Source of the DNA: a virus
Lineage: Duplodnaviria; Heunggongvirae; Uroviricota; Caudoviricetes
IMG/VR virus record: IMGVR_UViG_3300028534_000019
Span: 31,091-95,090 of that record
Length of the DNA: 64,000 bases
Direction: 5' to 3' (one strand)
Part shown: piece by piece, positions 4,884 to 21,769 of the stretch
Position numbering within the stretch: the first letter of the stretch is position 1
Layout of the letters: every line of letters starts with the position of its first letter
The notes under the pieces: model-generated
Database searches by the model: none
Told to the model about the DNA's origin: nothing
The model's input: only the letters and a program-made list of their open reading frames with translations
Position numbers and translations under genes: made by a program

Positions 4884-5633
4884 ATGTATATACCAAGAAG
4901 AGAATTTGATGATGAACCAAAAATAATTATTTTTAGTGGTGCTGGATTGGATGCCCCATCAGGATTAAAAACTTTTAGGGGTTCTGATGGTTTATGGGAT
5001 AGCCACAAAATACAAGATATTTGTACTGAAAGTACTTGGAAACAAAATTTTGAAGAAGTTCATAATTTTTATAATGGTTTAAGAAATAAATTAGAAAAAG
5101 CACAACCAAATAAAGCACATTTAAAAATAAAAGAATTATATGAAAAGTACCCTGATAGTGTTCTAAATATTACAATGAATATATCAGACTTTTTTGAAAG
5201 GTTAGAAGTTCCAGTTCTTCATATTCACGGAGAACTTAAAAAAATGGAATGTTATGCTTGTGGTACTAAATGGGATATTGGGTATAAGCAGTGGGATATT
5301 GAAAAAGATAGGTGTCCTAAATGCAATAGTAGAAAAGGTGTGAAACCATCTATTGTATTTTTTGGTGGTCAAGCACCTATGTATAGCTACTTGTGGCGTG
5401 CTTTTGAGCATACTATGAATAAAGATACTATTGTGATTGTTATTGGTACTCAGGGTAATGTAGTGAATGTAGAAGAGAATTTAATAGGTACTCCTTGTAA
5501 GAAAATTCTTTGTAATATGGAAGCATCAGCAGATATTAATGTAAAAAAATGTGGTTTTGATAAGGTGTACTATGAAAGTATAGAAACAGCAATAGACAAA
5601 ATTATGGATGATATTGAAGAATGGAAAAAATAA
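4884..5633 (+). CDS. Sir2-family NAD-dependent deacylase (CobB-like sirtuin)
   Basis: FSGAGLDAPSGLKTFRG (GAGxS...FR), VLHIHG (catalytic His), Zn site CYAC...CPKC, and PSIVFFGG. Confidence 0.8.
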   Translation: MYIPRREFDDEPKIIIFSGAGLDAPSGLKTFRGSDGLWDSHKIQDICTESTWKQNFEEVHNFYNGLRNKLEKAQPNKAHLKIKELYEKYPDSVLNITMNISDFFERLEVPVLHIHGELKKMECYACGTKWDIGYKQWDIEKDRCPKCNSRKGVKPSIVFFGGQAPMYSYLWRAFEHTMNKDTIVIVIGTQGNVVNVEENLIGTPCKKILCNMEASADINVKKCGFDKVYYESIETAIDKIMDDIEEWKK

Positions 5634-6088
5634 AAATATTCACAAGTTACTATTCTAATATTAACAAAATCAGAGAGAATTATCCTGATTTTGTTTTAAT
5701 TTCAATTAGTGGTGGTTTGGAAAATAATATTATAACTTTAATAGATGATTGGGATAAAAGGTTAGCACCTAAAAAAGATTTCTTCTTAGAGTATAAAAAT
5801 TCAAAAGAAGGTTTACCACGAGAGATTAAATATGTAAAAGAATTTAATGATAAAGTTCTATATAAAGATAAAATAAAAATAATTATAAACTCTTGGTTAG
5901 AAAAATATCCAAACAAAACTATTGTAATGCTTTGTTATGAACATCCTAAAGATTTTTGTCATAGACAAATAGTAGCTAAAGAAATTGAAACTGTTTTTAA
6001 TGTTGATGTAAAAGAATTATTTTTTGAAAATTATGAAAGAATAGATTATAAAATGTTTCCTAAAGGCTTAGATGAAGATGAATGGTAA
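5621..6088 (+). CDS. DUF488-like protein
   Basis: VMLCYEHPKDFCHRQIVAKEI resembles the DUF488 C(x)E...CHR signature. Overlaps the Sir2 gene by 13 nt. Confidence 0.5.
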   Translation: MEKIKIFTSYYSNINKIRENYPDFVLISISGGLENNIITLIDDWDKRLAPKKDFFLEYKNSKEGLPREIKYVKEFNDKVLYKDKIKIIINSWLEKYPNKTIVMLCYEHPKDFCHRQIVAKEIETVFNVDVKELFFENYERIDYKMFPKGLDEDEW

Positions 6089-6165
6089 TTATTAATTTTT
6101 TATTTAATATTGTTTTAATCTAAATCATATTATAATTTCATCATATTTAAGGAAAAGGCTATAAT

Positions 6166-6639
6166 ATGAAAAAAGAATTAAAAATAGATATATTAGATAA
6201 TCTACAAAGAAATAGTGTTTGTGTTATTTTTAAACCAAGTGATAGTGTTTCACATATACTTATTTTGGAAGAATTAGTAAATAGAGTAGTATCAAGTGAA
6301 GTGATATTAAAAAGAGATACACTTGAGTATCTTAGAGATTCAGAAATAGAAATATATCCATTAGTTTATATGTCAAAAAATGATTTTGATGAATTACCTC
6401 AAAATGTCAAAGCAAGAGTTAGTTGTGTTGATGGTGAGATGTTATTTGAAAGTGTAGAAGATGATAGACAATTATCTAAAACAACCTTTTCTATACAAAT
6501 AGAAGATAAAGAATATACAAAAGATGAACTTTTAAAAGAAGTTGTTATGAGAATGAGTAATTTAGAAGATGGTACTTATGCTAGTACACCTGATGATTAT
6601 GATGACTTTTATAGTTCTTACAGTTTTAAAAAGATTTAA
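6166..6639 (+). CDS. Hypothetical acidic protein
   Basis: 157-codon ORF with AAGGAAAAGG upstream. Confidence 0.6.
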   Translation: MKKELKIDILDNLQRNSVCVIFKPSDSVSHILILEELVNRVVSSEVILKRDTLEYLRDSEIEIYPLVYMSKNDFDELPQNVKARVSCVDGEMLFESVEDDRQLSKTTFSIQIEDKEYTKDELLKEVVMRMSNLEDGTYASTPDDYDDFYSSYSFKKI

Positions 6640-6640
6640 T

Positions 6641-6708
6641 TTTTAAGTTTCATTTAAGTTTAATATGTTATAATTTTACATATCAAAAGACAAAAAGGAT
6701 TTAAAATG
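6641..6708 (+). repeat. 68-bp promoter/leader cassette, copy A (67/68 identical to 36837-36904)
   Basis: TTTTAAGTTTCATTTAAGTTTAATATGTTATAATTTTACATATCAAAAGACAAAAAGGATTTAAAATG. Contains TTAAGT (6654), TGT-TATAAT (6666-6674), an RBS and the ATG. Confidence 0.85.
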
Positions 6709-6954
6709 TCACAAATTAATTTCAAAAAAGTTTCTTACTATGTAGTTTCAATTATGGTATTATTTTCTTTAATAGCAATATTATCAAAACCATCACAAAT
6801 TGAGATAGATGTAAAATCAGGTACTAAAACTCTAACTTGTGAATTTGCTGATGGATGGAGAGAAATAGAACCTGAAAAAGTTGTTGGGTTTAATGATGAA
6901 AATGGATATTGGACTTTTACAAATGGTTATGCTAAAAATTGTGAGGTTAGATAG
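6706..6954 (+). CDS. Small membrane-anchored protein
   Basis: N-terminal hydrophobic helix YYVVSIMVLFSLIAILS. Confidence 0.6.
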   Translation: MSQINFKKVSYYVVSIMVLFSLIAILSKPSQIEIDVKSGTKTLTCEFADGWREIEPEKVVGFNDENGYWTFTNGYAKNCEVR

Positions 6955-7157
6955 TGTTTGTTGATAAAATTTTAGAAAATGGTGTAGAGTGTGTTTTTAT
7001 TACACACTCCAACAAAATAAGAAAGGCATATAGATATAAAAATATTATTTGGAAAATATATGCTAGTGGTGGTTATTCTGAAGTTTTTGAAAGTGAAATT
7101 CAATTCTCAGGAACAAGAGAAGAAGCAAAACAGAAATATCCTGAATTATTTTTTTAA
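6954..7157 (+). CDS. Hypothetical protein with C-terminal YPELFF motif
   Basis: GTG start overlaps the previous stop. Ends ...EEAKQKYPELFF*. Confidence 0.55.
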   Translation: MFVDKILENGVECVFITHSNKIRKAYRYKNIIWKIYASGGYSEVFESEIQFSGTREEAKQKYPELFF

Positions 7158-7166
7158 AGGTTAGAT

Positions 7167-7463
7167 ATGGATTTAGATAAAATAAGATTAATAGAAACAA
7201 ATAGTGCTTTAGGTTATATGGAAGTAGCATACCTAATACAAATAAATGAAAAAGAAATGCTTTGTGTGTATTCAAATGAAGAAGGATATGTAGGTGACCA
7301 TTCTTGGGTGGTTGGTGAAGTGTATGATATGTTTGAATATGAGAGTGATTATGATGAAGTAATTAATGATAAGAAAGAAATGGTATTAAAAGATTCTCCT
7401 CTATATGGTGATTTTTTATTTGACTTTTTCTTAAAACATCTAATTAAGAATAAACTATGTTAG
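7167..7463 (+). CDS. Hypothetical protein
   Basis: 98-codon ORF in the operon. Confidence 0.55.
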   Translation: MDLDKIRLIETNSALGYMEVAYLIQINEKEMLCVYSNEEGYVGDHSWVVGEVYDMFEYESDYDEVINDKKEMVLKDSPLYGDFLFDFFLKHLIKNKLC

Positions 7464-8191
7464 ACTATATATCTATATTAGCTGGTGGTTCTTGTAAATT
7501 TAATTGTGAATTTTGTGTTGGTAATTCTATAAGAGAAAATATCACACCTCATTATAGTTCAAAAATCAAAGGTTTTTTAGAATGTTATGCTGATAGAACA
7601 CAATTACTTTCAGTTTCAGGTGATACTTCAGACCCATCATTAATAAGTGAAACAATATTTATTCCTGTTGAAGCAAAAGAGTATAATAAAGATATAAAAG
7701 TTAGCATACATACAAGGGATATATATTTTACTGAAAAAGCAATGGATTATGGTTATGATAAAATTGTTTTAAGTATTGATGAAACACTTTCAGAAAATGA
7801 TTATCAAACCTTAGTAAATTATTATTACCACTATGGTTATAATATTAGATTAAGTTTTGTTTTAACATCATCTAATTTTTGGATTATTGATGAATGGAAA
7901 AAAGATTTTCCAGCATTATTTGATATGGAATTAACAATAAGACCTGATGTATTTGAAAAAGATGAGGTTTTTAGAAAACATATTTTTTTAGAAACATTTC
8001 TTGGTATAGATGGAGATTGGCAAAATATAGAGCAATATAAAAATGAATATGGTGCTATTGTTTTAGAAAAGTACCCTAATGTTTGGTATTGGGATTATAA
8101 TGTTACTAATAAAAATCTTGATGTTTTATATCTTTTTAGTAATGGTGACATAAAAAATAATTGTAAGTGGGAAAATTTATATGAAAATTAG
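7457..8191 (+). CDS. Radical SAM superfamily protein
   Basis: CKFNCEFC gives the CxxxCxxC cluster near the N-terminus (ILAGGSCKFNCEFCVG), and LLSVSGDTSDPSL resembles the SAM-binding GGE-type strand. The subfamily is not assignable. Confidence 0.65.
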   Translation: MLDYISILAGGSCKFNCEFCVGNSIRENITPHYSSKIKGFLECYADRTQLLSVSGDTSDPSLISETIFIPVEAKEYNKDIKVSIHTRDIYFTEKAMDYGYDKIVLSIDETLSENDYQTLVNYYYHYGYNIRLSFVLTSSNFWIIDEWKKDFPALFDMELTIRPDVFEKDEVFRKHIFLETFLGIDGDWQNIEQYKNEYGAIVLEKYPNVWYWDYNVTNKNLDVLYLFSNGDIKNNCKWENLYEN

Positions 8192-8423
8192 ATTAATAGA
8201 TTATAAAGAAGAAAGTTTTGATTTTCCTTACCCACCAAATTATGGTATGGATTTAGCAAAAATAAAAATAATGGGTAGTACTTTAGATATAGATAAGAAA
8301 CTATCTAAACATCTTGCTGAGTATAATTATTTTATGTATAAGGGTATGAAGATATTTTTTGAAGATTTAAACAATGACTCAAAAAAGAAAATGTATTCAG
8401 AATACCCTGAATATTACTTTTAG
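8181..8423 (+). CDS. Hypothetical protein with C-terminal YPEYYF motif
   Basis: Ends ...KKMYSEYPEYYF*. Confidence 0.55.
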   Translation: MKIRLIDYKEESFDFPYPPNYGMDLAKIKIMGSTLDIDKKLSKHLAEYNYFMYKGMKIFFEDLNNDSKKKMYSEYPEYYF

Positions 8424-8438
8424 TGATTAGGGGATTAT

Positions 8439-8795
8439 ATGAGTTTAGAAAGTACAGTGGCTTCACAGTCAATACACCCAGGAACATATGAAGTACATTG
8501 GGAAAATACATTCGATACAAAAGAAATAGTTAGTACAATAGAAATAAAACAAACTATATATTCTAGTAATCAATTAAAAAAAGTTCTTAAAAAATTATTA
8601 AAAAATTTTGATAAATTAAATAGTGAAATAAAATTAATAGAACCATCATATAATAATACTGAAGAAAAAATTAATAGAACATTTGCTATAATTGATATGA
8701 ATAATGAATATGAGATTAATAAACTAATTTCAGAAGGGTATTCTTTAAAAGAGATACACCAAGGTAAATTTATATTATACAAAAGGATTATATAA
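8439..8795 (+). CDS. Hypothetical protein
   Basis: 118-codon ORF with GGGGA upstream. Confidence 0.55.
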   Translation: MSLESTVASQSIHPGTYEVHWENTFDTKEIVSTIEIKQTIYSSNQLKKVLKKLLKNFDKLNSEIKLIEPSYNNTEEKINRTFAIIDMNNEYEINKLISEGYSLKEIHQGKFILYKRII

Positions 8796-9316
8796 TGGTT
8801 TTAAATTTTTATGGCGGGCCGGGTATTGGTAAAAGTACAAAAGCATCAGAGTTATTTTTTAGATGTAAACAACAAAACTTACAGGTTGAATTAATACACG
8901 AGTTTGCTAAAGATATGGTTTATTCTCAATCTATGGAAATATTGAAAGACCAATATTATGTAGGTGCTAATCAACATCATAGGGTGTGGAGAGTTCATAA
9001 CTATTACTTACAACAAGGTTTTAAAGAGGATGAATTTCTTATAATAACTGATAGTCCTATTTTGTTGGGTGCGGCTTATACTGATGATGATAAATTAAGA
9101 GATTTTATTTTTGAAACTTCAGAAAGATATAATAATATTAATATTATGCTAACAAGAAAATTTAATTACCAAGAAGAGGGAAGAAACCAAGATTTAAAAG
9201 GTGCTATTGAGATTGATAAAAAAGTTTTAGATTTATTAAATAAAACTTCTTATATAGAAACAAATGATACAGATAAAATTTTATCTCTAATTAAGGAAAA
9301 AATGAGTACAATATAA
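8795..9316 (+). CDS. P-loop NTPase (kinase/ATPase-like)
   Basis: Walker A motif FYGGPGIGKST at the N-terminus, and IITDSP as a possible Walker B. Confidence 0.6.
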   Translation: MVLNFYGGPGIGKSTKASELFFRCKQQNLQVELIHEFAKDMVYSQSMEILKDQYYVGANQHHRVWRVHNYYLQQGFKEDEFLIITDSPILLGAAYTDDDKLRDFIFETSERYNNINIMLTRKFNYQEEGRNQDLKGAIEIDKKVLDLLNKTSYIETNDTDKILSLIKEKMSTI

Positions 9317-9335
9317 ATATTAAAAAGGAGATAAA

Positions 9336-9914
9336 ATGACACTTGAAACATTTGCTGTTGAGTATAATAACTTAAAAATAGAAAAAGTATATATAAATTC
9401 ACACACATTAGAATCAGTAAAAAAAAGATTTAATATAGATTTAAAAATATCAGACCTAAAATCTGATATTTCTTTATCTATTGCTTTTCAAAAATATAAA
9501 AAGAATTTTACAGTAAATGATTTTAAGTTTGTTATCTTTATAAATGATATTGTACTTGTATTAAATATATATGAAAAAAATAATAAGTTTTATGGTAAAG
9601 TACTAACAGCATTATCACAAAAACAATTTGAATTAAGCAAAAATTTTTATCTTGGTAGTATTTTTGGTAATTTTGAGTGTACTATAAAAGAATATGCTTA
9701 TGAAGAAGTTTATTTTAATAATAGTTTTGAAAATATAAAAAAATCACTAAATGATTACAAACAATTACCAATATCACTAGATATTGCAACAAGTGATAGT
9801 GATATTAAAAGATTGAGAAAAGCAAACAGAACTGTTGATGTACCTTATATAAAAGGTTATTTTATAAAAGTTGTTGATGGTATTGATTATCTTATTATAG
9901 GTAGTAAAAAATAA
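9336..9914 (+). CDS. Hypothetical protein
   Basis: 192-codon ORF with AAAGGAG RBS. Confidence 0.6.
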   Translation: MTLETFAVEYNNLKIEKVYINSHTLESVKKRFNIDLKISDLKSDISLSIAFQKYKKNFTVNDFKFVIFINDIVLVLNIYEKNNKFYGKVLTALSQKQFELSKNFYLGSIFGNFECTIKEYAYEEVYFNNSFENIKKSLNDYKQLPISLDIATSDSDIKRLRKANRTVDVPYIKGYFIKVVDGIDYLIIGSKK

Positions 9915-9931
9915 GTATATGGAGGGTTAAT

Positions 9932-10387
9932 ATGAATAAACAAAAGTTTTATTTTAATAGTGAACATTTTGAATATGCTATTAATGACATTAAAAATAGA
10001 GTCCTATTGAATGTTAAAAAAGATGGTTTACAGATTGTTTCAGTGTTTAAGGATGGTTTACCTTTGGGTGTAAGGTTATCAAATGAATTTAATACAGGGT
10101 TGAGTATTATAAATTATGAAAAGTTTAGCTCAAATTCTGATAGTGTAACATTGCTTAAAGATGATGGTTTAAGAGGTGCTACAAATATATTAATTGTAAG
10201 TGACTTAGTACAAGATAAAAAGGGTTTTGAAAAAATTGTAAAATATATTAAAGAAAAATATGATAAAGAACCTATTATATACACTTTATTTGGTGACCCT
10301 TTGGAAAATAATACTAGATGGAATTTTACATTTAAAGAAAATGGACAGAAAATTCAATTCATTCCTTGGGTTGGAATGGATGTATAA
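9932..10387 (+). CDS. Hypothetical protein (weak phosphoribosyltransferase-like pattern)
   Basis: IVSVFKDGLPLGVRLS and NILIVSDLVQDKKG resemble the PRTase Rossmann and PRPP loops, but the canonical D-x-T-G-x-T is absent. Confidence 0.3.
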   Translation: MNKQKFYFNSEHFEYAINDIKNRVLLNVKKDGLQIVSVFKDGLPLGVRLSNEFNTGLSIINYEKFSSNSDSVTLLKDDGLRGATNILIVSDLVQDKKGFEKIVKYIKEKYDKEPIIYTLFGDPLENNTRWNFTFKENGQKIQFIPWVGMDV

Positions 10388-10411
10388 ATAATTCTAAAAT
10401 AGGAGAAAGAA

Positions 10412-10999
10412 ATGAAAAAATTTAGTGAATATATGAGTGAAAAAGCACTTGTAGAAGAAATGGAAGATAAGATAGGTTTAATGTTATATATGGCAGAAAA
10501 AAGTGATATTATAGCTGAATCTTATGATTTTGAAAATTTAACAGAAAGCCAAAGAATTGTACTTGAAGAAGGTGTAAATGATTGGTTAAACAAAGTTGGT
10601 CTTAAATTACATAAAACAAAAGGTATTATTGATTATTTAGCTGATTTTACTAAAGGTACAGGTAAAGTTCTTATGTCAGCAATTAAAGGTGATAAAGAGG
10701 CTGTTAAAGAACAACTTAAAAATGTTAAAAAAGAAGAAGTTTTAGATTTCTTACTTAAATTAGATATGGCTACATTACATATTGTTACCGGCCCGATACA
10801 CTTAATTGATGCTGTTACAGGTTGGGATTTAATGGCTAATGTTAAAGCAGTAGCTAAAACAGCAACTGATAAACTTAAAGAATTTTATCAAGCAATGAAA
10901 AAAGTAAAAGAAACAATTACAACTGTTTTACAAGGTACTAAACAAAAGAAAATGTTACAATTAGCAACAAACTTAGAAACAACAATTCCTGCACCTTAG
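10412..10999 (+). CDS. Hypothetical protein
   Basis: 195-codon ORF with GGAGAAAG RBS. Confidence 0.6.
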   Translation: MKKFSEYMSEKALVEEMEDKIGLMLYMAEKSDIIAESYDFENLTESQRIVLEEGVNDWLNKVGLKLHKTKGIIDYLADFTKGTGKVLMSAIKGDKEAVKEQLKNVKKEEVLDFLLKLDMATLHIVTGPIHLIDAVTGWDLMANVKAVAKTATDKLKEFYQAMKKVKETITTVLQGTKQKKMLQLATNLETTIPAP

Positions 11000-11019
11000 A
11001 ACAAAAAAAAGGATTTTAA

Positions 11020-11538
11020 ATGCCAAAATTTGGTAAAAGAAGTAAAAGAAACTTAGAAACTTGTCATAGAGATTTAAGAATTATATGTAATGAAGCAATT
11101 AAATATTTTGATTTTTCTGTTATATATGGTATAAGAAGTGAAGAAGAACAATTTAAACTTTTTAATGAAGGCAAATCTCAACTTGATGGTATCCATAAAA
11201 AATCAAAACACCAAGGCAGAAAGTGTGAAAAACTTGATGCTGGTGTAGATGAAGAACACAAAATTTTAACAGATGAAGATGGTGATGCTATTGCTTCTTT
11301 TGCTGTTGATTTAATGCCTTACTATAAAGGTTTCAATCCTTTTACAAATGAGTCAGGAACTAAACTTTTTTATTACCAAGCAGGATTAATAATGGGGATA
11401 GCCGCTAGACTTTATGAAGAGGGAAAAATAAAACATACTTTAAGATGGGGTGGAAATTGGGATAATGATATGGACTTTTTCGGAGATTCTCATTTCTTTG
11501 ATTTACCACACTTTGAATTAGTAATACCTAAAAAATAG
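11020..11538 (+). CDS. Peptidase M15-family cell-wall hydrolase (putative endolysin)
   Basis: SKHQ...AVDLMPY...DLPHFEL gives the H...D...H zinc-ligand pattern of M15 peptidases. YGIRSEEEQFKLF is also typical of the family. Confidence 0.65.
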   Translation: MPKFGKRSKRNLETCHRDLRIICNEAIKYFDFSVIYGIRSEEEQFKLFNEGKSQLDGIHKKSKHQGRKCEKLDAGVDEEHKILTDEDGDAIASFAVDLMPYYKGFNPFTNESGTKLFYYQAGLIMGIAARLYEEGKIKHTLRWGGNWDNDMDFFGDSHFFDLPHFELVIPKK

Positions 11539-11547
11539 GGTATTACT

Positions 11548-11664
11548 ATGAAGATATTTAAAAAAATTATTTTATCTATGATTATAAGTTTAAGCCTTTT
11601 TGTTTTTGACCCTTATAAACTTAACAGGTTAAGAGATTATCATAAAATTGAAAACACAAAATAA
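11548..11664 (+). CDS. 38-aa membrane peptide (possible lysis accessory; below the ORF-track cutoff)
   Basis: MKIFKKIILSMIISLSLFVFDPYKLNRLRDYHKIENTK*, lying 10 nt after the M15 peptidase stop. Confidence 0.35.
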   Translation: MKIFKKIILSMIISLSLFVFDPYKLNRLRDYHKIENTK

Positions 11665-11715
11665 CCTTAAAGACTTATAAAACTTACAATAACCTTACAA
11701 CACTACATAAAGTAT

Positions 11716-11723
11716 TATAAATA
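11716..11723 (+). promoter_or_regulatory. T4-type late promoter box TATAAATA
   Basis: Exact TATAAATA 19 nt upstream of the nuclease-terminase operon ATG at 11742. Confidence 0.45.
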
Positions 11724-11741
11724 ATTATAAAAGGATTTATA

Positions 11742-12089
11742 ATGCTTTATACTTACAGAATTAAAAAAATACACAAAATATATGATGGTGATACAATTAC
11801 AGCAGAACTTGATTTAGGATTTAAGATTTCATTTATTGAAAAGATTAGATTGTCTTTTATTGATGCTCCTGAAATAAGAGGGGAAGAAAGAGAAGAAGGA
11901 TTAAAATCAAGATTATGGTTAGTAGAACATTTAAACTCAGCTATATCTAAAGGTGATGATGTTTTTGTTAGAACAAATAAAGATAGCCAAGGTAAATATG
12001 GAAGATATTTAGGGGATATTATAATTAATGGGGAGTCACTTAATCTAAAGATGGTTGAAGAGGGTTATGCTGAACTTTATAAAAAGTAA
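11742..12089 (+). CDS. Staphylococcal-nuclease (SNase/thermonuclease)-like nuclease
   Basis: YDGDTIT, RLSFIDAPE, GKYGRYLGDI and MVEEGYAELY match SNase-fold signatures. Confidence 0.7.
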   Translation: MLYTYRIKKIHKIYDGDTITAELDLGFKISFIEKIRLSFIDAPEIRGEEREEGLKSRLWLVEHLNSAISKGDDVFVRTNKDSQGKYGRYLGDIIINGESLNLKMVEEGYAELYKK

Positions 12090-12099
12090 AGGTTTTATT

Positions 12100-13872: not shown

Positions 13873-13875
13873 AAA

Positions 13876-13897
13876 TTAAGTATTTTTACTGTATAAT
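13876..13897 (+). promoter_or_regulatory. Promoter candidate (TTAAGT-N10-TATAAT)
   Basis: AAAATTAAGTATTTTTACTGTATAAT, 29 nt upstream of the ATG at 13926. Confidence 0.55.
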
Positions 13898-13925
13898 AAA
13901 ATCTATTAAAAATAAAAGGTTATAT

Positions 13926-14552
13926 ATGAGAAAGAAATTTAATGAAGATAAGAACAAAACTTATGAGAGTAAAGAACACTCTTTACATAAAAAGAAGATT
14001 GTAAAAAATCAAGACTATACAAAATTTAGGTTTTTTATAGGAACTTTTGATAATCAAACACCTAAGTTTCATTTAATATTAAATGATTTATATGATTCTA
14101 ATGAAAAAGATGAATTAGAATTAAGAATTATGTCACCAGTTGGATTGGTTATTGAATGTCAGCAAGTTGTGAATATAATGAATAACAAATTTAATGGTAG
14201 AACAACAGCATATATTGAAAGCCACGCTAGTTCAGCAGGTGCTATTGTTTTTGCTAATGCTGATAAAAGAGTTATATATGAAAATTCAAGAATAATGTTT
14301 CACAACTATTCAGGTGGTTATGGTGGTAAATTTCAAGATATTAAAGATAGATTAGATTTTGATGAAAAACATATTATTTCTTTTTTGAGTGTTGCTAAAC
14401 AATTCTTAAATAAAAAAGAATGGAAACAAATGGTAAATGGAAAAAACTTTTGGTTTGATGCTTCTGATATGTTAAAAAGAAATATAGCAACTCATATCAT
14501 AGTAGATGGTAAAGAGATGACTAAGAAAGAATATAAAAAATATAAAAAATAA
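13926..14552 (+). CDS. ClpP-fold serine protease (S14-like)
   Basis: SHASSAGAIVF (catalytic Ser context), NSRIMFHNYSGG (His) and FWFDASDML (Asp region), in ClpP order. Carries an N-terminal basic extension of about 50 aa. Confidence 0.7.
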   Translation: MRKKFNEDKNKTYESKEHSLHKKKIVKNQDYTKFRFFIGTFDNQTPKFHLILNDLYDSNEKDELELRIMSPVGLVIECQQVVNIMNNKFNGRTTAYIESHASSAGAIVFANADKRVIYENSRIMFHNYSGGYGGKFQDIKDRLDFDEKHIISFLSVAKQFLNKKEWKQMVNGKNFWFDASDMLKRNIATHIIVDGKEMTKKEYKKYKK

Positions 14553-14574
14553 TAATCTCTATAATAGAAAATCA

Positions 14575-14582
14575 TATAAATA
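14575..14582 (+). promoter_or_regulatory. T4-type late promoter box TATAAATA
   Basis: Exact TATAAATA 25 nt upstream of the ATG at 14607. Confidence 0.4.
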
Positions 14583-14606
14583 TTATTAAAATTAAAGAGG
14601 TATAAA

Positions 14607-15344
14607 ATGAACCTTAATTTATATGACTCATCACACGATAGAGAATATGAACTTTTTAGAGATACAACAGAAGAATTAATTAATATGTATGGTGTACCTG
14701 TAAAATATCTTATAACAGAAAAAATTAATCAAAATGAAATATTTGGTGAATGGAGTCATTTAAAGATAGACAATCAAAAGGTACACCAATTTTTTGGTTT
14801 ACCATCAGCTAGTGATAATTGGGAAGGTGATAACTCTTTATTTTCAAATTTTGGGCTTCAAAATGTAGAAAGTATTAATATATTCATTCCTAGAAAAGTT
14901 ATGGAAGTGATACACCCTGAAATTGTTAATAGAGATGGTAAAGCAACAATAGAAAATTTACCTATTGGGAATTTGGTAGTTTTTGAAAGTAATAAAATAA
15001 TGGAAGTTACTGGTTTTGAATTAAGTTCAGCAGATTTTGGTAATAATAATGTATTTACTTCTGATAGACTGAAAAATGTTTTTAAACTTAAATTAAAATC
15101 TTATATACCAAATAGAGATGATTATTCTTCAGCAGATGATATAACAGATAGTAACAATTTTGATTATGGTGATTTTGGTAACTTAGATTCAATATTCAGA
15201 GATGAAGAAGAAGAAGTAAAAAATGTTACACACAAAGCCGAAGATGTAGTATTAAAAAATGAAACTATTTATCCTGCTGAGGTTAGAGAAAAACCAATAA
15301 GAGAAAAAACAAAAGAAGATAATCCTTTTGGGTATCTTGGTTAA
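14607..15344 (+). CDS. Hypothetical protein (possible virion protein, from the late-box context)
   Basis: 245-codon ORF with AAAGAGG RBS and a late-type box upstream. No motif is confidently recognised. Confidence 0.6.
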   Translation: MNLNLYDSSHDREYELFRDTTEELINMYGVPVKYLITEKINQNEIFGEWSHLKIDNQKVHQFFGLPSASDNWEGDNSLFSNFGLQNVESINIFIPRKVMEVIHPEIVNRDGKATIENLPIGNLVVFESNKIMEVTGFELSSADFGNNNVFTSDRLKNVFKLKLKSYIPNRDDYSSADDITDSNNFDYGDFGNLDSIFRDEEEEVKNVTHKAEDVVLKNETIYPAEVREKPIREKTKEDNPFGYLG

Positions 15345-15358
15345 TATAAAGGAAAAAT

Positions 15359-15754
15359 ATGAAAAATAACCTAAATGGTGTTGATAATACTAAAACAGTA
15401 GGTTCTTTTAATGAATTAGATAAGTTATTAAAAGATAAGAAAATGAAACCTGTTTTTGAAAGAGATGGTTTAACATTTTTTAAAAAATCAAGGTTTTATA
15501 TGAACAAAGGTGTATTAAGAGAACATATTGCTACATATAAGGGATATGCTATTCTACTAGACCACAACAATCTTAAAGAAACTTTAGATGAAAATAAAAC
15601 AAAAATGATGCCTATACTAATTAGTGCTAATGATATTAAATTACTTAAAAAAATAAATGGTAATATAATAAGAAAATTAAACCCACAAACTCTTACAAAA
15701 CTTGAAAAAGCAGTAATGCTTGATGAAGTAATGAAAAACATAGATTCAATGTAA
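15359..15754 (+). CDS. Hypothetical protein
   Basis: 131-codon ORF. Confidence 0.55.
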   Translation: MKNNLNGVDNTKTVGSFNELDKLLKDKKMKPVFERDGLTFFKKSRFYMNKGVLREHIATYKGYAILLDHNNLKETLDENKTKMMPILISANDIKLLKKINGNIIRKLNPQTLTKLEKAVMLDEVMKNIDSM

Positions 15755-15816
15755 TCTATGTTCCCACAATAAAATTTTTAAAAAATCAATAATAAACATA
15801 CTATTTTTATTTTACT

Positions 15817-15838
15817 TTAAGCATATAGTAGCTATAAT
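15817..15838 (+). promoter_or_regulatory. Promoter candidate (TTAAGC-N10-TATAAT)
   Basis: TTAAGCATATAGTAGCTATAAT. The -10 element and leader are shared with 32565-32605. Confidence 0.5.
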
Positions 15839-15870
15839 ACTACATATAAAACATAAAAGGATTAGAAATG
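15830..15870 (+). repeat. 41-bp -10/leader cassette (40/41 identical to 32565-32605)
   Basis: AGCTATAATACTACATATAAAACATAAAAGGATTAGAAATG versus ...GGATTAAAAATG. Confidence 0.85.
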
Positions 15871-16212
15871 GCAACAAGAAGTACAATTTGGATAGAAAAT
15901 GAAGATAAAAGTTTTGAAGGTATTTATGCTCATTGGGATGGATATTTATCACATAATGGTAGAATACTTTTAAATAACTATAATTCAGAAGAAAAAGCAA
16001 GAGAACTTATTGCTAAGGGTAATATTTCAGTTTTAGATGAAACTATTGACACTTGTAGATTTTATGATGAAGAGGGTTATAAATCAAGTTCTGATGATTT
16101 AACTGATTATCACGAAGAGTATCTATATCTTTTCAAAGATGGTAAATGGTTTGTATCAGAAGATGCTAAAAATTTTGTTGAATTAACAGAAAAACTTATA
16201 GGAGAAGAGTAA
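15868..16212 (+). CDS. Hypothetical protein
   Basis: 114-codon ORF following the promoter cassette. Confidence 0.6.
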   Translation: MATRSTIWIENEDKSFEGIYAHWDGYLSHNGRILLNNYNSEEKARELIAKGNISVLDETIDTCRFYDEEGYKSSSDDLTDYHEEYLYLFKDGKWFVSEDAKNFVELTEKLIGEE

Positions 16213-16592
16213 TGTTTTCAGATAAGTATGTAAAAATTTTAAAAGAGGATTGGGAAGTAATCAAAAAAGATTATAACTCAATGCTGAAAGAAAATGAAAA
16301 GTTAAAAAAAGAAAATGCTGAGTTACAGAAATATAAAGCACAAGATGATTTACTTTATAGTTATGAAAACACATTAGTTGATAAAGATATTCAGATAAAC
16401 TCTTTAAAGGAAGAAATTCATAATTTAAAATATAATTTACTTATATTAGAAGATAAACTAGATAGAAGTGCTATTATGGAAAAATTATATCTTGAAACTT
16501 TACATAAGGAAAGATTGAAAAGAAGTTGTTTTAAAGAATGTGATGAATATGAAACTGTAAATACAGAGAGTATTTTAGATAAAACTGTTTAA
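16212..16592 (+). CDS. Hypothetical coiled-coil protein
   Basis: Heptad-like K/E/L-rich sequence. The ATG overlaps the upstream stop. Confidence 0.55.
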   Translation: MFSDKYVKILKEDWEVIKKDYNSMLKENEKLKKENAELQKYKAQDDLLYSYENTLVDKDIQINSLKEEIHNLKYNLLILEDKLDRSAIMEKLYLETLHKERLKRSCFKECDEYETVNTESILDKTV

Positions 16593-16601
16593 AGGATTAA
16601 A

Positions 16602-17051
16602 ATGATATATTCAAATAATAAAAAAGTAAAACACGACTATGAAATAATTGAAACATTTGAGGCAGGTGTTGTTTTGAGCGGTCCGCAAGTAAAATCAATT
16701 AGAAAAGGTTCTTTAAGCCTTAAAGGTTCTTATGTTAGTCTTGATGATGGTGTTTTATCATTAAAACAATACTCACTTGCTAGACCTGATTATTTGGATG
16801 CTTTTAGTTCTTTTGATGATAAACCAATAAAATTTTTACTCAAAAAAAGAGAGATTAAAAAATTACAAAAAAAGATTCAAGAAAAAGGTTTAACATTATC
16901 TATAACAAAAGTTTATCAACCTGAAAATACTAGATTTATTAAGGCTGAGTTAGTTCTTGTGAGAGGTAAAAAACTATATGATAAAAGAGAAGATTTAAAA
17001 AAGAAAACACAAGAAATGGATATGAAAAAGGCTATAAAATATGATAGATAA
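16602..17051 (+). CDS. smpB: SmpB (tmRNA-binding protein)
   Basis: NNKKVKHDYEIIETFEAGVVLSGPQVKSIRKGSLSLKGSYV matches the conserved SmpB N-terminal block (NKKA.HDY.I...EAGI.L.G.EVKS.R). Size is 149 aa with a basic C-terminal tail. Confidence 0.9.
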   Translation: MIYSNNKKVKHDYEIIETFEAGVVLSGPQVKSIRKGSLSLKGSYVSLDDGVLSLKQYSLARPDYLDAFSSFDDKPIKFLLKKREIKKLQKKIQEKGLTLSITKVYQPENTRFIKAELVLVRGKKLYDKREDLKKKTQEMDMKKAIKYDR

Positions 17052-17250
17052 TCTAAAAAGTGCTGATGAAATATATTTAGTAGTACAGTTTGGAGCAAAA
17101 GATTTTAACAATAGAACACAAGAATTGATTGATGAAAATTATATTCCATTTAGTGATGTTGCTGTTCAAAGTTTTCACGATGAATTTTGCTTTTCACAAC
17201 AGTTTATAAAAAATCCAAAATACATAGAAGAAACAAAAAGGAAAATATAA
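17041..17250 (+). CDS. Hypothetical protein
   Basis: 69-codon ORF overlapping the smpB end by 11 nt. Confidence 0.45.
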   Translation: MIDNLKSADEIYLVVQFGAKDFNNRTQELIDENYIPFSDVAVQSFHDEFCFSQQFIKNPKYIEETKRKI

Positions 17251-18041
17251 TGTTAATAGTACCTGTTGGTTTGCCTGGTTCAGGAAAAACTGTTTTATCA
17301 AGAAAATTTAATACAGTTATAAATGCTGATGAATTGTTTAAGGATAATTATACATTAGATGATTTAATAAATTATATAAAAGAATATAATTATACAGTAA
17401 CAGATGTTTATTTGGATGGTTTATTTATTACAAGGAATTTAGTTAAGAAATTGATTGAAACTTTTGATTATTATATTAGATTAGTATATTTTAAACCTAA
17501 TATAGAAAATTGTATCTACAATGATTTATCAAGAAATAGAGAAAAAGATAGTGTTAATATAATTTATGGTTCTGATTTAAGTTTTATGAAAGAAAGTTAT
17601 TTTAGAAATAAAATAAGAGAAACAATGGAAGTATATAAGGCTGATTATGTAGAATATATAAAAGAAGAAAATAACTTTCAAAATTATATAGAAACACAAG
17701 AGTATGTCTTAGAAGGAAGTACATATGGTACTTGTTGGGATGAAGACGGCCCGTCTGAAACAACACCTGATGACCCATACCATTTTACTGATTTTACAGA
17801 ACTTGAAAAGATATTTAAAAAAATGAATATTCCTTATACAGAAGAAAATTATAATAAAATTGAAAGTGTTATAGAAGAAGAAGATAGAAGTGAGGGTGAT
17901 TATTATGGTGGTTATGCTTATAAAGAGGTTTATAGAGTTGAAGTTACATTATTAATAAAAGCAATACTAAAAGAGTTTTTTGGTATTGATAAAACAGATA
18001 TGGCATATATTAAAAAAGAATACCCTGAACTAATATTTTAA
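17250..18041 (+). CDS. P-loop kinase-like protein (polynucleotide-kinase-like N-terminus) with C-terminal YPELIF motif
   Basis: MLIVPVGLPGSGKT is a Walker A at the extreme N-terminus, as in T4 Pnk-type kinases. The ATG at 17250 overlaps the previous stop (TAATG). Ends ...IKKEYPELIF*. Confidence 0.55.
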   Translation: MLIVPVGLPGSGKTVLSRKFNTVINADELFKDNYTLDDLINYIKEYNYTVTDVYLDGLFITRNLVKKLIETFDYYIRLVYFKPNIENCIYNDLSRNREKDSVNIIYGSDLSFMKESYFRNKIRETMEVYKADYVEYIKEENNFQNYIETQEYVLEGSTYGTCWDEDGPSETTPDDPYHFTDFTELEKIFKKMNIPYTEENYNKIESVIEEEDRSEGDYYGGYAYKEVYRVEVTLLIKAILKEFFGIDKTDMAYIKKEYPELIF

Positions 18042-18056
18042 AAAAAAGGCTAAAAA

Positions 18057-18569
18057 ATGGTAGAAGAAAATAATTTTAGAGAAACAAAAACACATATTTA
18101 TTTTTGGGGTAGTATCTATTCTCAATGGTACACTTCAAAAAACCAATTCAAAGAAGATGGATTTATTTTTCAAAATGCTGAACAGTATATGATGATGAAA
18201 AAAGCAGAACTTTTTAAAGATTATGATGTATTAGAAAAAATGAAACAAACAAGTAATCCAAAGGTATTAAAAAAATTGGGTAGAGAAATTAAAGGTTTTG
18301 ATGAAGATATTTGGAATTTTAATAAAATGGATATTGTTGAAAGAGGGAATTTTTTAAAGTTCTCTCAAAATCCTAAGTTATTAGAAAAACTTATAGCACA
18401 CAAAAATAAACATATAGTAGAAGCATCACCTTATGATAAGATTTGGGGTATTGGGCTTCATTGGTCAGATGATAAGGTATTAAATGAAAGTACTTGGAAT
18501 GGTGAAAATCTTTTAGGTAAATGTATTATGTCAGCAAGAGATAAAATTTTAAATCCAAAATCTATATAA
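18057..18569 (+). CDS. NADAR (YbiA/DUF1768) family protein
   Basis: IYFWGSIYSQWY, FQNAEQYMMMKKAELF, GNFLKFSQNPKL and IVEASPYDKIWGIG are the family signatures as I recall them. Confidence 0.8.
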   Translation: MVEENNFRETKTHIYFWGSIYSQWYTSKNQFKEDGFIFQNAEQYMMMKKAELFKDYDVLEKMKQTSNPKVLKKLGREIKGFDEDIWNFNKMDIVERGNFLKFSQNPKLLEKLIAHKNKHIVEASPYDKIWGIGLHWSDDKVLNESTWNGENLLGKCIMSARDKILNPKSI

Positions 18570-18579
18570 TAAGAAAAAA

Positions 18580-18601
18580 TTAAATAAAAATATTATATAA
18601 T
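18580..18601 (+). promoter_or_regulatory. Promoter candidate (TTAAAT-N10-TATAAT) upstream of dnaK
   Basis: TTAAATAAAAATATTATATAAT, 38 nt upstream of the ATG at 18640. Confidence 0.4.
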
Positions 18602-18639
18602 TAAGAATTAAAACATTTAAAACACAAAGGAGATAATTT

Positions 18640-20490
18640 ATGGCAGTTATTGGTATAGATTTAGGAACGACAAATAGTGCTGTTTCAGTTTATGAAGTAG
18701 GGGAATTTAAAATTATTCCTAATGCTGAGGGTAAAAATACAACACCTAGTATTGTAGCATTTACAGATAAAGGGGATGTATTAGTAGGGGAATCAGCAAA
18801 AAGACAAGCAGTCACAAACCCTGAAAAAACTATTGAAGCAATTAAAAGAATTATGGGTATGCAATTTAATGAACCTAGATGTAAAGAGGCTCAAGAAAAA
18901 GTACAATATAAAATTGTAGATAAAAATGGTTTGGCCGCTGTTGATGTTGATGGTAAGATTTATACACCACAAGAAATTTCAGCTAAAATCCTTACAAAAC
19001 TAAAAGATGATGCAGAAGCATTTATTGGTAAAGAAGTTACAGATGCTGTAATTACAGTTCCAGCATACTTTAATGATGCTCAGAGAAAGGCGACACAAGA
19101 GGCAGGCGTTATTGCAGGGCTTAATGTACTAAGAATTATTAATGAACCTACTTCGGCCGCTCTTGCTTATGGTTTGGACAAAAAAGGTGAGGAAAATATT
19201 CTTGTTTATGATTTTGGTGGTGGTACTTTTGATGTATCTGTATTAGAAATTGGAGATGGTACTTTTGAAGTTCTTTCAACTGATGGTAATGCTTTCTTAG
19301 GTGGTAAAGACTTTGACCAAATTTTAGTTAATTATATTGCTGAATATTTTAAAGAGAAACAGGGTGTTGATTTAAGAAATGATAAAATGGCACTTCAAAG
19401 ATTATATGATGCTTCAGAAAATGCTAAAAAAGAGTTATCAAGTGTTGTAGAAACTGAAATTAACTTACCATTTATTACTATGACAGAAGCCGGCCCGCAG
19501 CATCTTGTTTTAAAAATTTCAAGAGGTAAATTTGAGGGGTTAGTACAAAATCTTGTAGATGAAACTATTGAACATATTACAACAGCATTACAAGACGCTG
19601 GTTTAAGTGTAGATGATATTAGTGAATTGATTATGGTTGGTGGCTCAACAAGAATACCTTTAGTACAAGAGGCAGTTTCAAAGTATTTTAAAGGTAAAAC
19701 TCTTAATAAATCTGTTAATCCTGATGAAGTTGTAGCCGCTGGTGCTTCAATTCAAGGTGGTGTATTAACAGGAGATGTAAAAGATGTTCTTCTTCTTGAT
19801 GTTACACCATTATCACTTGGTATTGAAACTATGGGTGGTATTGCTACTAAAATCATCCCAAAAGGTACAACTATTCCTGTTAAAAAATCAGAAATCTTTA
19901 GTACAGCAGTTGATAATCAACCAGCAGTTAGTATTGTAGTAGTACAAGGTGAAGCAAAATTAGCAGAAGATAATAAATCTTTAGGACAATTTAATCTTGA
20001 GGGTATAACACCAGCTAAAAAAGGTGTACCACAAATTGAAGTTAATTTTGATGTTGATTCTAATGGTGTTTTGAGTGTATCAGCTATTGATAAAGGAACA
20101 GGTAAAGAACAGAAAATAACAATTACAGGTTCGACAGGTTTAAGTGAAGAAGAAATTAGAAAGATGATTGATGATGCTGAAAAACAAAATCAAGAAAAGG
20201 CTGAAAAAATTAAAGCAATTGAAGCAAAAAATGAATTGGATGCTACTCTTTCAAGAATTAAAAACTTTAATGATGAAGAAAAAAATGAAGTGCTATCAGC
20301 TAAAATTTCTGATGTTGAAGAATATGTAAAAGAAGATAGAACAGCAGAAGAAATTAGAAAAATTAGAGATGAACTTGAAGAAGTTTATTTAAAAGCATTT
20401 GAAGAGAAATCAAAAAGAAATGAAGGTGCTGAGGTAAAAGAAAGCACTGAAAATAATGATGATGTTATTGATGCTGAAATTGAAGAATAA
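18640..20490 (+). CDS. dnaK: Hsp70 chaperone DnaK (canonical bacterial type)
   Basis: [69 protein letters not shown], and an acidic tail [10 protein letters not shown]. Confidence 0.95.
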
Positions 20491-20501
20491 AAGAGGAAAA
20501 A

Positions 20502-21305
20502 TTGAAAAAATTATATAAAATTCTTGAAATTGAAGAAACTTCTACAACAGTAGAAATAAAAAAAGCATATAGAAAATTAGCTAAAAAATACCACCCTGAT
20601 GTTTGTAAAGAAGAGGGTGGTGAAGATAAGTTTAAAGAAATTAATAGAGCATATGAAGTTCTAAGCAATCCACAAGAAAAACAAAAGTATGATAGATTTG
20701 GTGATGAAATGTATGAAAAAATGGGGTCAGGTGGTGGAAGACCTAATCCAAATGCTGATGAGTTTGCAGAAGCAATGGCATCATTTTTCAACCAAAAGGG
20801 AAATCCCCGACAAGGTAATCCTTTTGGTATGGGTGGTAATCCTTTTATTCATACAACAATTCAAGCATATATTTCGATAGAAGATTTATTTAAAGGTACT
20901 TCTATACAATTACAAGATGGTACTAAAGTAAAAATACCACCTAGAACAATACCGGGTAGTAGGGTAAGAGTTAAAGGCAAAGGTATGTCAGATGGTAAAA
21001 ATACAGGAGATTTATTTATTATCATAACACCAAAAAATAATGATAAAGAATTTGTTGAGAATGATACTATTATAAAGATTATCAAAATTGATTTAGTTAG
21101 TATGATTTTTGGAAATGAAATAAAATATAATCATTATGGTAAAGATTTAATTGTTACTGTTCCAAAAAATACAAAGCCCGGTGACTTTGTACAAATTCCC
21201 AATCAGGGCTTAGGTACTCAGGGTTCATTAATTTTACATTTAGATTTAGAATTACCAAAAGCAGAAGATTTAGATGAAGAAAAAGTAAAAGAATTATTTA
21301 ATTAA
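20502..21305 (+). CDS. J-domain co-chaperone (DnaJ/CbpA-like, no zinc-finger domain)
   Basis: TTG start after AAGAGG. J domain is YKILEIEETSTTVEIKKAYRKLAKKYHPDV with HPD, followed by a G/F-rich linker and a DnaJ C-terminal beta domain. No CxxCxGxG repeats. Confidence 0.85.
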   Translation: MKKLYKILEIEETSTTVEIKKAYRKLAKKYHPDVCKEEGGEDKFKEINRAYEVLSNPQEKQKYDRFGDEMYEKMGSGGGRPNPNADEFAEAMASFFNQKGNPRQGNPFGMGGNPFIHTTIQAYISIEDLFKGTSIQLQDGTKVKIPPRTIPGSRVRVKGKGMSDGKNTGDLFIIITPKNNDKEFVENDTIIKIIKIDLVSMIFGNEIKYNHYGKDLIVTVPKNTKPGDFVQIPNQGLGTQGSLILHLDLELPKAEDLDEEKVKELFN

Positions 21306-21312
21306 TATACAA

Positions 21313-21334
21313 TTAAGGTTTCTTTTGCTATAAT
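21313..21334 (+). promoter_or_regulatory. Promoter candidate (TTAAGG-N10-TATAAT)
   Basis: TTAAGGTTTCTTTTGCTATAAT. TATAATTTCATCATAT is shared with the 6089-6165 intergenic region. Confidence 0.5.
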
Positions 21335-21364
21335 TTCATCATATATAAACTAAAAGGATTCAAA

Positions 21365-21769
21365 ATGGCAAAAGAAAAAAGTTATGGGGTTGCTCCTTAT
21401 TTAATTATAAATGGGCAATATTATATATTGTTAAATAAAACATCAGAACATAGTAGATACAATTTCTTCAAAGGTAAAATTGAAGAGGGTGAAACTATTG
21501 CTCAATGTGCCAAAAGAGAATTTTGGGAAGAAACAGGTGTAGAAGTTGATGAGAGAGATTTTGAAGAATATTTTTTCCAAAAGTCTTCTAAAAAAGATGT
21601 TGGTATTTTTTTAATTAATTGGTCTAAATATATTAATAAAAAATTTCAATTTCAAAAAAGAGAAATTTGGGCTTCTTATTGGGTAGAGGTTGATGATGTT
21701 CAAACATCCAAAAACCAAAAAGAAATTGTTGATTCTATTGAATCTTTTTTTAAAAATAAATCTGAGTAA
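21365..21769 (+). CDS. Nudix hydrolase
   Basis: Complete Nudix box GKIEEGETIAQCAKREFWEETGV (Gx5Ex7REUxEExGU). Confidence 0.85.
   Translation: MAKEKSYGVAPYLIINGQYYILLNKTSEHSRYNFFKGKIEEGETIAQCAKREFWEETGVEVDERDFEEYFFQKSSKKDVGIFLINWSKYINKKFQFQKREIWASYWVEVDDVQTSKNQKEIVDSIESFFKNKSE

Follow-up and report, generated by a model that had tools for sequence, protein, structure and literature searches.

Separately placed Sir2–DUF488-N3a, NADAR and Nudix genes in an AT-rich T4-like myophage

Genes for a sirtuin (Sir2), a DUF488-N3a protein, a NADAR protein and a Nudix hydrolase lie within one 64,000-nucleotide stretch of phage DNA, positions 31,091 to 95,090 of IMG/VR virus record IMGVR_UViG_3300028534_000019; "the window" below means this whole stretch. 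On balance we favour, with modest confidence, the view that an AT-rich T4-like myophage carries these four as accessory genes at separate places, which serve separate functions and do not make up one system. The analysis shows family memberships, motifs and gene neighbourhoods, while every substrate named below is inferred from them. A preliminary description of this DNA had gathered the sirtuin, NADAR and Nudix genes under a common theme of nicotinamide adenine dinucleotide (NAD+) and ADP-ribose (ADPr) chemistry. These kinds of gene are already catalogued in big phages, and the only possible novelty is the pairing of the sirtuin with DUF488-N3a. The window thus adds one large phage to the well-documented pattern in which big myophages gather NAD+/ADP-ribose enzymes, among which orphan NADARs are proven counter-defence factors.

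Placement of the four genes and the case for a common system

All four open reading frames (ORFs) were found on the + strand, in the positions and families that the preliminary description gave them, and all four score above the Pfam gathering scores against which we judged family calls. SIR2 occupies 4884-5633 (249 aa; PF02146, 98.8 bits against a cutoff of 24, 4.6e-28, profile positions 1-178 of 180), DUF488-N3a 5621-6088 (155 aa; PF22751, 39.4 bits against 27, 8.8e-10), the YbiA-type NADAR 18057-18569 (170 aa; PF08719, 154.5 bits against 35.1, 3.8e-45) and Nudix 21365-21769 (134 aa; PF00293, 53.4 bits against 21.1, 3.6e-14). The genes are dispersed over 17 kb; the spacings between Sir2, NADAR and Nudix are 12.4 kb and 2.8 kb, and the intervening DNA encodes packaging, head and chaperone proteins (terminase, prohead protease, neck protein, SmpB, DnaK and DnaJ). 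Sir2 and DUF488 are the only physically linked pair among the four. The earlier caution that a functional link between such dispersed genes would be inference only was well placed; nothing in the genome links the three loci. According to a published survey (PMC9503650), ~48% of medium and jumbo phages, mostly myoviruses, encode NADAR and 24-45% encode Nudix, and sirtuins are rarer but concentrated in tailed phages; with tblastn, we found relatives of the window sirtuin in 1009 phage records and matches to the window NADAR in 719. Given such base rates, the co-occurrence of the three families in a large myovirus is no more than expected.

A common NAD+/ADP-ribose theme is nevertheless real for the clade to which the sirtuin belongs. 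We collected 31 IMG/VR phage sirtuin loci with a profile of the window sirtuin and its relatives, and these fall into 18 clusters at 70% sirtuin identity. A Macro domain is encoded near the sirtuin in 7 of the 18 clusters, ribose-phosphate pyrophosphokinase (Prs) in 6, a NAPRTase-family (NadV-like) enzyme in 5, a HAD_SAK_2 ("Swiss army knife RNA repair") phosphatase likewise in 5, and, in 4, a NADAR that shares 41-46% identity with that of the window. It is this clustering of NadV, Prs, NADAR, Macro and HAD proteins that makes the theme real for the clade, and the recurrent neighbours match published phage NAD-salvage and sirtuin RNA-repair neighbourhoods (PMC9503650). That much of the original idea holds for islands in other phages; in the present genome the three loci are unlinked.

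We consider it clearly unlikely that the four genes are a coordinated toolkit, in which the sirtuin would spend NAD+ while NADAR, Nudix and DUF488 jointly processed ADP-ribose products or host-made signals and adducts, such that NAD-based defence chemistry was manipulated or repaired. The idea of an NAD+-ADPr system in viruses was already set out in a 2022 survey, which also proposed that phage NADAR, Macro and Nudix proteins act on soluble ADP-ribose derivatives (PMC9503650). Elsewhere a sirtuin of the same clade does lie only 2.5-4.6 kb from a NADAR with 41-46% identity to the window protein, together with NadV, Prs, Macro and HAD, and one unrelated phage (locus L061) packs NADAR, Sir2, YqeY, DUF488 and a cytidylyltransferase-like gene into 5 kb. 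The window differs from such arrangements in the distances and the intervening genes given above, and family base rates already predict the co-occurrence that it does show. Although its sirtuin and NADAR belong to the same families as those of phage NAD+ salvage islands (KVP40-type NadV plus NMNAT, or NadV/Prs/NADAR/Macro/Sir2 clusters), a tblastn search of the 64-kb window with representatives of NadV, Prs, Macro and HAD detected no homologue, and Pfam gave no NAD-related hit in the 10 kb that precede it on the source assembly. Similarly, no cytidylyltransferase-like Pfam domain indicative of NMNAT was seen in the ~60 window genes scanned or recorded in the 10 kb upstream, no NMNAT query having been run, and the flanks of the source contig, which carry structural genes upstream and baseplate genes downstream, displayed no NAD-related genes in the part that was covered, all but about 25 kb of that ~101-kb contig. 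Finally, ADP-ribose and NADH signatures are missing from the Nudix protein, and its gene shares synteny with tRNA-repair genes (see below).

Several features of these neighbourhoods may be recorded in their own right. Loci L102-L121 share a conserved island with the order NadV-like, NADAR, Macro, HAD-like, small membrane-like ORF, Sir2, DUF3127 and Prs, and in 15 loci a 145-aa HAD-like protein without a Pfam match is encoded just upstream of Sir2. The L061 cluster (456-8438 of that locus; IMGVR_UViG_3300045988_112927, a 190-kb phage) is compact, holding within 8 kb an RNA-ligase-like gene, NADAR, a canonical SIR2, YqeY overlapping DUF488-N3a, and the cytidylyltransferase-like gene, which has an NMNAT-type fold. 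Two further window genes were considered as NAD-pathway enzymes and set aside: the AAA_28 protein at 8795-9316, a candidate NadR-type ribosylnicotinamide kinase, is a thymidylate-kinase-like protein according to PHROGs, and the ORF at 9932-10387, a candidate NAD-pathway phosphoribosyltransferase, has HGPRT-like matches only, all sub-threshold.

The sirtuin and its DUF488-N3a neighbour

The Sir2 ORF runs to its stop at 5633 and the DUF488 ATG is at 5621, so that the overlap of the two genes reported previously is confirmed and measures 13 nt; the two proteins are probably co-translated. A promoter and terminator scan around the pair gave nothing that exceeds shuffled expectation.

The sirtuin had been described as apparently intact, and its NAD-binding loop G19-A20-G21...S26 (GAGxxxxSG), N99 and the catalytic H115-G116 are indeed present and invariant in an alignment of relatives; the protein also has a four-Cys zinc ribbon (C123xxC126 and C144xxC147). 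The TQNID signature, however, reads T97-M98-N99-I100-S101-D102, with its Gln and first Asp replaced, and to that extent the full motif is absent. Like variants occur in KVP40 (TANVSDL) and in locus L096 (TTNISDF), and the Ser-Asp form is also found in the window's close relatives, whereas most proteins at the 31 phage sirtuin loci have TQNVDDL. Since the Ser-Asp variant is common to KVP40, L096 and the close relatives, the change to TMNISD is conserved and not a lesion. The altered positions are among those that line the nicotinamide pocket in Sir2Tm structures.

The closest solved relatives of the window sirtuin are E. coli CobB (PDB 6rxj, 8.6e-31, a match that spans the catalytic core) and archaeal Sir2 deacylases. 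It nonetheless falls far below the cutoffs of all NCBIfam CobB equivalogs (NF040867, 120.1 bits against 320; NF001753, 130.2 against 243; NF001755, 122.1 against 318), and it matches phage sirtuins best (PHROG 2162, 7.5e-52), including those of KVP40-like Vibrio phages at 42-44% identity by tblastn. By these comparisons it is to be placed with the phage sirtuins, which derive from CobB-like enzymes. The window protein shares GAGxS, the catalytic His and the zinc ribbon with E. coli CobB (6rxj, 1s5p), which is a class III sirtuin that works as a protein deacylase, and it differs from CobB in the NAD+ pocket motif, where Met replaces Gln and Ser replaces Asp. In addition, the conserved Tyr of FYNARR in CobB is followed three residues later by an Arg, to which the window protein aligns a Leu. 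That Arg is part of the succinyl-lysine recognition pair.

A "distinct viral sirtuin clade" found in KVP40, T5, rV5-like and jumbo phages has been predicted to be KptA-like and to act in RNA repair (Iyer et al. 2022, PMC9503650). Like the members of that clade, the window sirtuin is a stand-alone CobB-derived core without an adjacent Macro toxin-antitoxin partner, and it likewise adjoins a putative phosphoesterase-type gene. It differs in that its partner, DUF488-N3a, is absent from the partners listed for the clade (2H, cREC, HAD, calcineurin-like, Nudix and RNA ligase), in that its motif is TMNISD where the clade mostly has TQNVDDL, and in that it keeps the zinc-ribbon cysteines which many clade members are missing. 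We suppose that the enzyme would spend NAD+ to move ADP-ribose onto a group on a macromolecule, and our best guess, a tentative one, is that it makes a KptA/Tpt1-like attack on the terminal phosphate of damaged RNA. A number of observations tell against such a role. The replacements at M98 and S101 might alter or weaken the NAD+ chemistry; a role of phage sirtuins in RNA repair is so far a prediction in the literature; and no RNA ligase, 2H or KptA gene is present among the annotated window genes. Of the RNA-end-processing partners listed for the clade none adjoins the window sirtuin, the calcineurin-like, RlaP and CCA-type genes being 19-33 kb away.

The possibility that the sirtuin is a plain protein deacylase is nearly as likely as a KptA/Tpt1-like one. 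A fuller version of it, in which a CobB-type lysine deacylase reprograms host metabolism (for example by activating acetyl-CoA synthetase) and DUF488 is an unrelated neighbour that acts on DNA or RNA ends in replication, strikes us as somewhat unlikely, yet several observations fit it. The nearest solved relatives are deacylases, the zinc ribbon, N99 and H115 are retained, the Macro neighbours in other phages would suit clean-up of O-acetyl-ADP-ribose, and DUF488 is found in replication contexts elsewhere. Such a role has also been proposed for KVP40-like phage sirtuins, which are expressed in mid-infection (PMC5107563). On the other hand, the CobB equivalog scores of 120-130 bits stand against cutoffs of 243-320, the Gln and first Asp of TQNID are replaced, and HAD_SAK_2 "RNA repair" phosphatases repeatedly adjoin the clade; our literature search found no biochemical test of any phage sirtuin.

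The preliminary description had also pointed out that Sir2 domains serve as defence effectors, and indeed such domains are common in that role, and some phage sirtuins belong to HerA-type or toxin-antitoxin-type systems (PMC9503650). An NADase effector, as in Thoeris, DSR, SIR2-HerA or SIR2-Argonaute, might be carried to exclude rival phages or to drain host NAD+. Several features stand against this explanation: the protein is a 249-aa stand-alone CobB-like core that has no sensor or partner domain (no SLOG, HerA, Argonaute, TIR or long N-terminal partner), its gene neighbours are a primase and DUF488, and its relatives are CobB and the phage sirtuins, not defence SIR2s. On these Pfam, PHROG, NCBIfam, PDB and tblastn comparisons we regard it as highly improbable.

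The DUF488 protein has the motif C105-Y-E-x3-D-F-C113-H-R115, in which C105, Y106, E107, D111, F112, C113, H114 and R115 are invariant in 16 sequences. In a confident AlphaFold2 model (mean predicted local distance difference test score, pLDDT, of 92) the motif lies between the central strand and the following helix, a strand-loop-helix arrangement, and its position in the model is that of the Cys P-loop in tyrosine and dual-specificity phosphatases and in rhodaneses. Burroughs and Aravind reportedly assigned DUF488 in 2023 to the rhodanese-phosphatase superfamily (RapZ-C/DUF488/DUF4326 clade), and the model is compatible with that assignment but does not establish it. A sequence search found no DUF488 relative with a solved structure, PHROGs assigns the family no function, and our literature search yielded no paper on DUF488 function and none that names DUF488 and Sir2 together.

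The pairing of Sir2 with DUF488 is recurrent. In three close relatives (L004/5, L010/11 and L012/13), whose sirtuins are 67-78% and DUF488 proteins 51-57% identical to the window's, the two genes are separated by a gap of 0.5-1.0 kb that holds 2-4 variable small ORFs. Three distant phages (L061, L081 and L091) also have DUF488-N3a and a sirtuin 1.3-4.5 kb from each other, and there the sirtuin is of the canonical TQNID kind and shares only ~24% identity with that of the window; these are the 3 of 80 viral DUF488 loci that have a sirtuin within 6 kb. Under a KptA/Tpt1-like guess for the sirtuin, a cysteine-based DUF488 enzyme would take off the phosphate that remains on the ribose product or the nucleic-acid end, and so would take the role of the Macro, HAD, 2H or calcineurin-type partners that adjoin the sirtuin clade in other phages. 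Sir2 and DUF488-N3a could then be an undescribed two-enzyme, NAD+-dependent module for healing nucleic-acid ends, in which the sirtuin would ADP-ribosylate a terminal 2'- or 3'-phosphate (of damaged tRNA or DNA ends) and DUF488 would clear the phospho-ribose product or the end phosphate. We put this forward as a speculation, and a very doubtful one. If it were true, the presence of two unrelated sirtuin types near DUF488-N3a in different phages would be convergent recruitment. The recurrence of DUF488 beside two sirtuin types, NADAR, YqeY and NAD+-dependent ligase leads in any case to a testable idea of its substrate, a phosphate on ADP-ribose or on nucleic-acid ends.

The genomic data weigh against such a module in several ways. 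The three distant loci represent two (or three) lineages, which is not clearly above chance; DUF488 is within 5 kb of the sirtuin in 0 of the 31 other phage sirtuin loci; and a sirtuin is within 5 kb of DUF488 in 0 of 80 bacterial DUF488 loci. Taken with the 3/80 viral loci, these counts led us to reject Sir2-DUF488 as a general module. Furthermore, locus L014 keeps DUF488 beside a decayed sirtuin, and in locus L108 a remnant of the sirtuin persists where DUF488 is not found close by, so Sir2 and DUF488 can exist apart. Viral DUF488 genes are more often near replication genes, namely Pol III alpha-like genes (12 loci) and NAD+-dependent LigA (8 loci). Sir2 and DUF488 are thus associated repeatedly but loosely, and they are not proven to be a module.

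The two decayed sirtuins also indicate that the gene is dispensable in this phage group. The remnant in L014 (2893-3015) corresponds to residues 5-45 of the sirtuin (41 residues) and is fused to the end of another ORF; in L108, residues 1-79 (5001-5255) and 207-249 (6515-6640) are retained with ~1.3 kb of other sequence between them. A linkage of NADAR with DUF488 was considered as well and rejected, as the 5/80 viral and 2/80 bacterial loci in which it occurs are about the base-rate expectation.

NADAR and Nudix proteins

The window NADAR scores 141.5 bits on the YbiA-type model TIGR02464, whose cutoff is 73.7, and aligns to the Phytophthora NADAR of PDB entry 8BAU (PnNADAR) at 5.4e-19. Its residues E42, K49, R76, W86, K90, E122, D127 and W130 fall at 8BAU positions that contact ADP-ribose or catalyse hydrolysis of guanine-ADPr, with E42, K49 and E122 aligned to E43, K50 and E125. 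Homologues are found in Herelleviridae, Phapecoctavirus, Lak and Vibrio phages. Every NADAR subtype tested is reported in the literature to hydrolyse guanine-ADPr in vitro, and T4 AdfN and two unrelated phage NADARs (Bas32 and Bas60), which represent three lineages, have been shown to strip ADP-ribose from guanine in DNA and to defeat DarTG1. The statement in the preliminary description that this family includes enzymes which remove ADP-ribose from guanine thus extends to phage NADARs, and the window protein keeps the catalytic residues. It belongs to the same superfamily as the phage anti-DarT proteins and 8BAU, has their ADP-ribose-contact and catalytic residues, and is likewise an orphan: no DarT adjoins it, its neighbours being a 284-aa P-loop-like protein and DnaK, and there is no ART family hit among the annotated window genes. 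It differs from T4 AdfN in being YbiA-type, in having Glu122 at the subfamily-defining position where T4 AdfN-type phage proteins have His, and in showing no detectable similarity to T4 gp30.3 (AdfN) in a BLASTP comparison (E = 6.4). Given the Glu and the lack of similarity, it is not an AdfN orthologue.

As a YbiA-type N-glycosidase with a complete ADP-ribose-binding site, the window NADAR would strip ADP-ribose from guanines of the phage DNA and so counter DarT1-like toxins. Counter-defence against guanine ADP-ribosylation is, on the residues and precedents just given, the most likely and best-supported role for it. The published finding that T4 gp30.3 and YbiA gave no protection from DarT1 in one in vivo assay, despite their activity in vitro, speaks against too ready an assignment, as in vivo specificity varies. 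The gene directly upstream, a 284-aa ORF at 17187-18041, has only a sub-threshold N-terminal P-loop (AAA_33) match and no PHROG match.

The Nudix protein has the perfect Nudix box ascribed to it earlier: residues 37-59 (G37-x5-E43-x7-R51-E52-F-W-E55-E56-T-G58-V59) match GX5EX7REUXEEXGU at every position. Its assignment to ADP-ribose chemistry fares less well. Dunn et al. are said to have described in 1999 a Pro 15-16 residues after the box as the signature of ADP-ribose pyrophosphatases (ADPRases) and SQPWPFPxS as that of NADH pyrophosphatases. The window protein has neither the ADPRase Pro (residues 74-75 are Ser-Ser) nor SQPWPFPxS. No NCBIfam equivalog reaches its cutoff for this protein, with the NudC, NudE and NudF models scoring 16-30 bits against cutoffs of 158-248 (20.5 against 169 for NudE). 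Among solved structures, full-length similarity is seen only to the decapping enzyme Dcp2 (1.5e-5, residues 17-119), and matches to MTH1/MutT cover the Nudix box only.

The neighbours of the gene also point toward RNA. DnaK-DnaJ directly precede it, and 2.7 kb downstream there is a gene for an RlaP-type nucleotidyltransferase of the "RNA repair pathway" (24448..25548, +; Pfam RlaP, 1e-13; PHROG 388, 5e-57); the Nudix orthologues in relatives (48-53% identity) are next to Thg1, RlaP, DHH and YqeY genes. The distance between RlaP and Nudix is 0.6-3.3 kb in the window and in 2 of the 3 relatives examined (L127 and L128). The T4 NudE and NadM-type Nudix proteins, which make up the main phage ADP-ribose/NAD clades (PMC9503650), share with the window protein the Nudix fold and the perfect box, and the NudE of an Acinetobacter phage matches part of it at 34%; the window protein departs from them in the two signatures and in its neighbourhood of Thg1, RlaP and DHH genes instead of lysozyme and head genes or NMNAT. 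We suggest that the protein would be an RNA 5'-end or nucleoside-diphosphate-X (NDP-X) pyrophosphohydrolase that works with the tRNA-repair genes of the phage. An RNA 5'-end or NDP-X role is more likely to be the better fit than ADP-ribose hydrolysis, to judge by signatures, structural match and synteny. Two points count the other way, namely that the window has no Thg1 homologue and that the partial NudE match leaves an ADP-ribose activity possible.

In two relatives a Thg1-like gene is followed directly by the Nudix orthologue (L127, 5213-6456; L211, 5201-6465), and in L211 the two overlap by 4 nt with a DHH phosphoesterase gene downstream. This Thg1-Nudix pairing is a possible functional pair and suggests a role for the phage Nudix protein in tRNA 5'-end repair. 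Neither it nor the DUF488 substrate hypothesis alone opens a long-standing question.

The phage genome and its other genes

That the DNA comes from a phage, as first described, is borne out by its gene content: gp32, RNase H, the large terminase TerL, neck, gp15, gp19 and baseplate genes are present and identify the source as a T4-like myophage. The window is ~26% guanine plus cytosine (GC), and nearly all of its coding sequence is on the + strand. Megablast of window positions 4000-22000 against a phage collection gave zero matches, and so there is no close cultured relative in that collection; identical sequence recurs on metagenome contigs of up to 100.9 kb. Upstream of Sir2, Pfam matches identify gp32 (1345-2358) and RNase H (2370-3512), and a DNA primase-like gene (3827..4873, +; PHROG 47 DNA primase, 2.4e-33) lies directly upstream of it, which places Sir2-DUF488 in (the end of) a replication gene block. 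The large terminase gene is at 12055-13872, and a Clp-type prohead protease and a neck protein are also encoded in the window.

A number of other window genes concern RNA. YqeY (GatB-like; 28443..28889, +; Pfam YqeY, 1.2e-17) elsewhere adjoins DUF488 in L061, where the two genes overlap, and is near Sir2 in L096. A YfcE-type calcineurin-like phosphoesterase is encoded at 37321-38004 and a CCA-adding/poly(A)-polymerase-type nucleotidyltransferase at 38175-39122. The trans-translation pair is complete, with SmpB at 16602-17051 (Pfam, 1.7e-38) and transfer-messenger RNA (tmRNA) at 39452-39772 (Rfam RF00023, 90.8 bits), 22 kb apart. The tag peptide of this tmRNA as given by ARAGORN is ANNTDYTGNTVLSA, which has an unusual ending. 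Together, SmpB and tmRNA, RlaP, the CCA-type nucleotidyltransferase, YqeY and the YfcE-type phosphoesterase make an RNA-directed role of Sir2-DUF488 and of Nudix plausible.

The window also encodes two Hsp70/DnaK paralogues (766 and 471 bits) and a DnaJ, at 18640-20490, 20502-21305 and 39844-41706, the first DnaK and the DnaJ lying between NADAR and Nudix. In L108 the same DnaK (70% identity) and DnaJ are found 2 kb downstream of the decayed sirtuin remnant. A staphylococcal-nuclease-like ORF (11742-12089) ends inside the large terminase ORF, past its listed TTG start at 12055, and the true terminase start may be further downstream than that TTG. The sole sizeable minus-strand block of the window, at 44791-47935, where GC skew flips, holds three ORFs besides those for the gp15 tail sheath stabiliser and a gp19-like tube protein. 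A MoxR-type AAA ATPase and a DUF2201 metallopeptidase-like/VWA protein form a two-gene pair (33465-34577 and 35220-36473), and an actin-like protein of the ALP/MreB type and an SPFH/Band 7 protein are encoded at 26665-27576 and 31568-32455.

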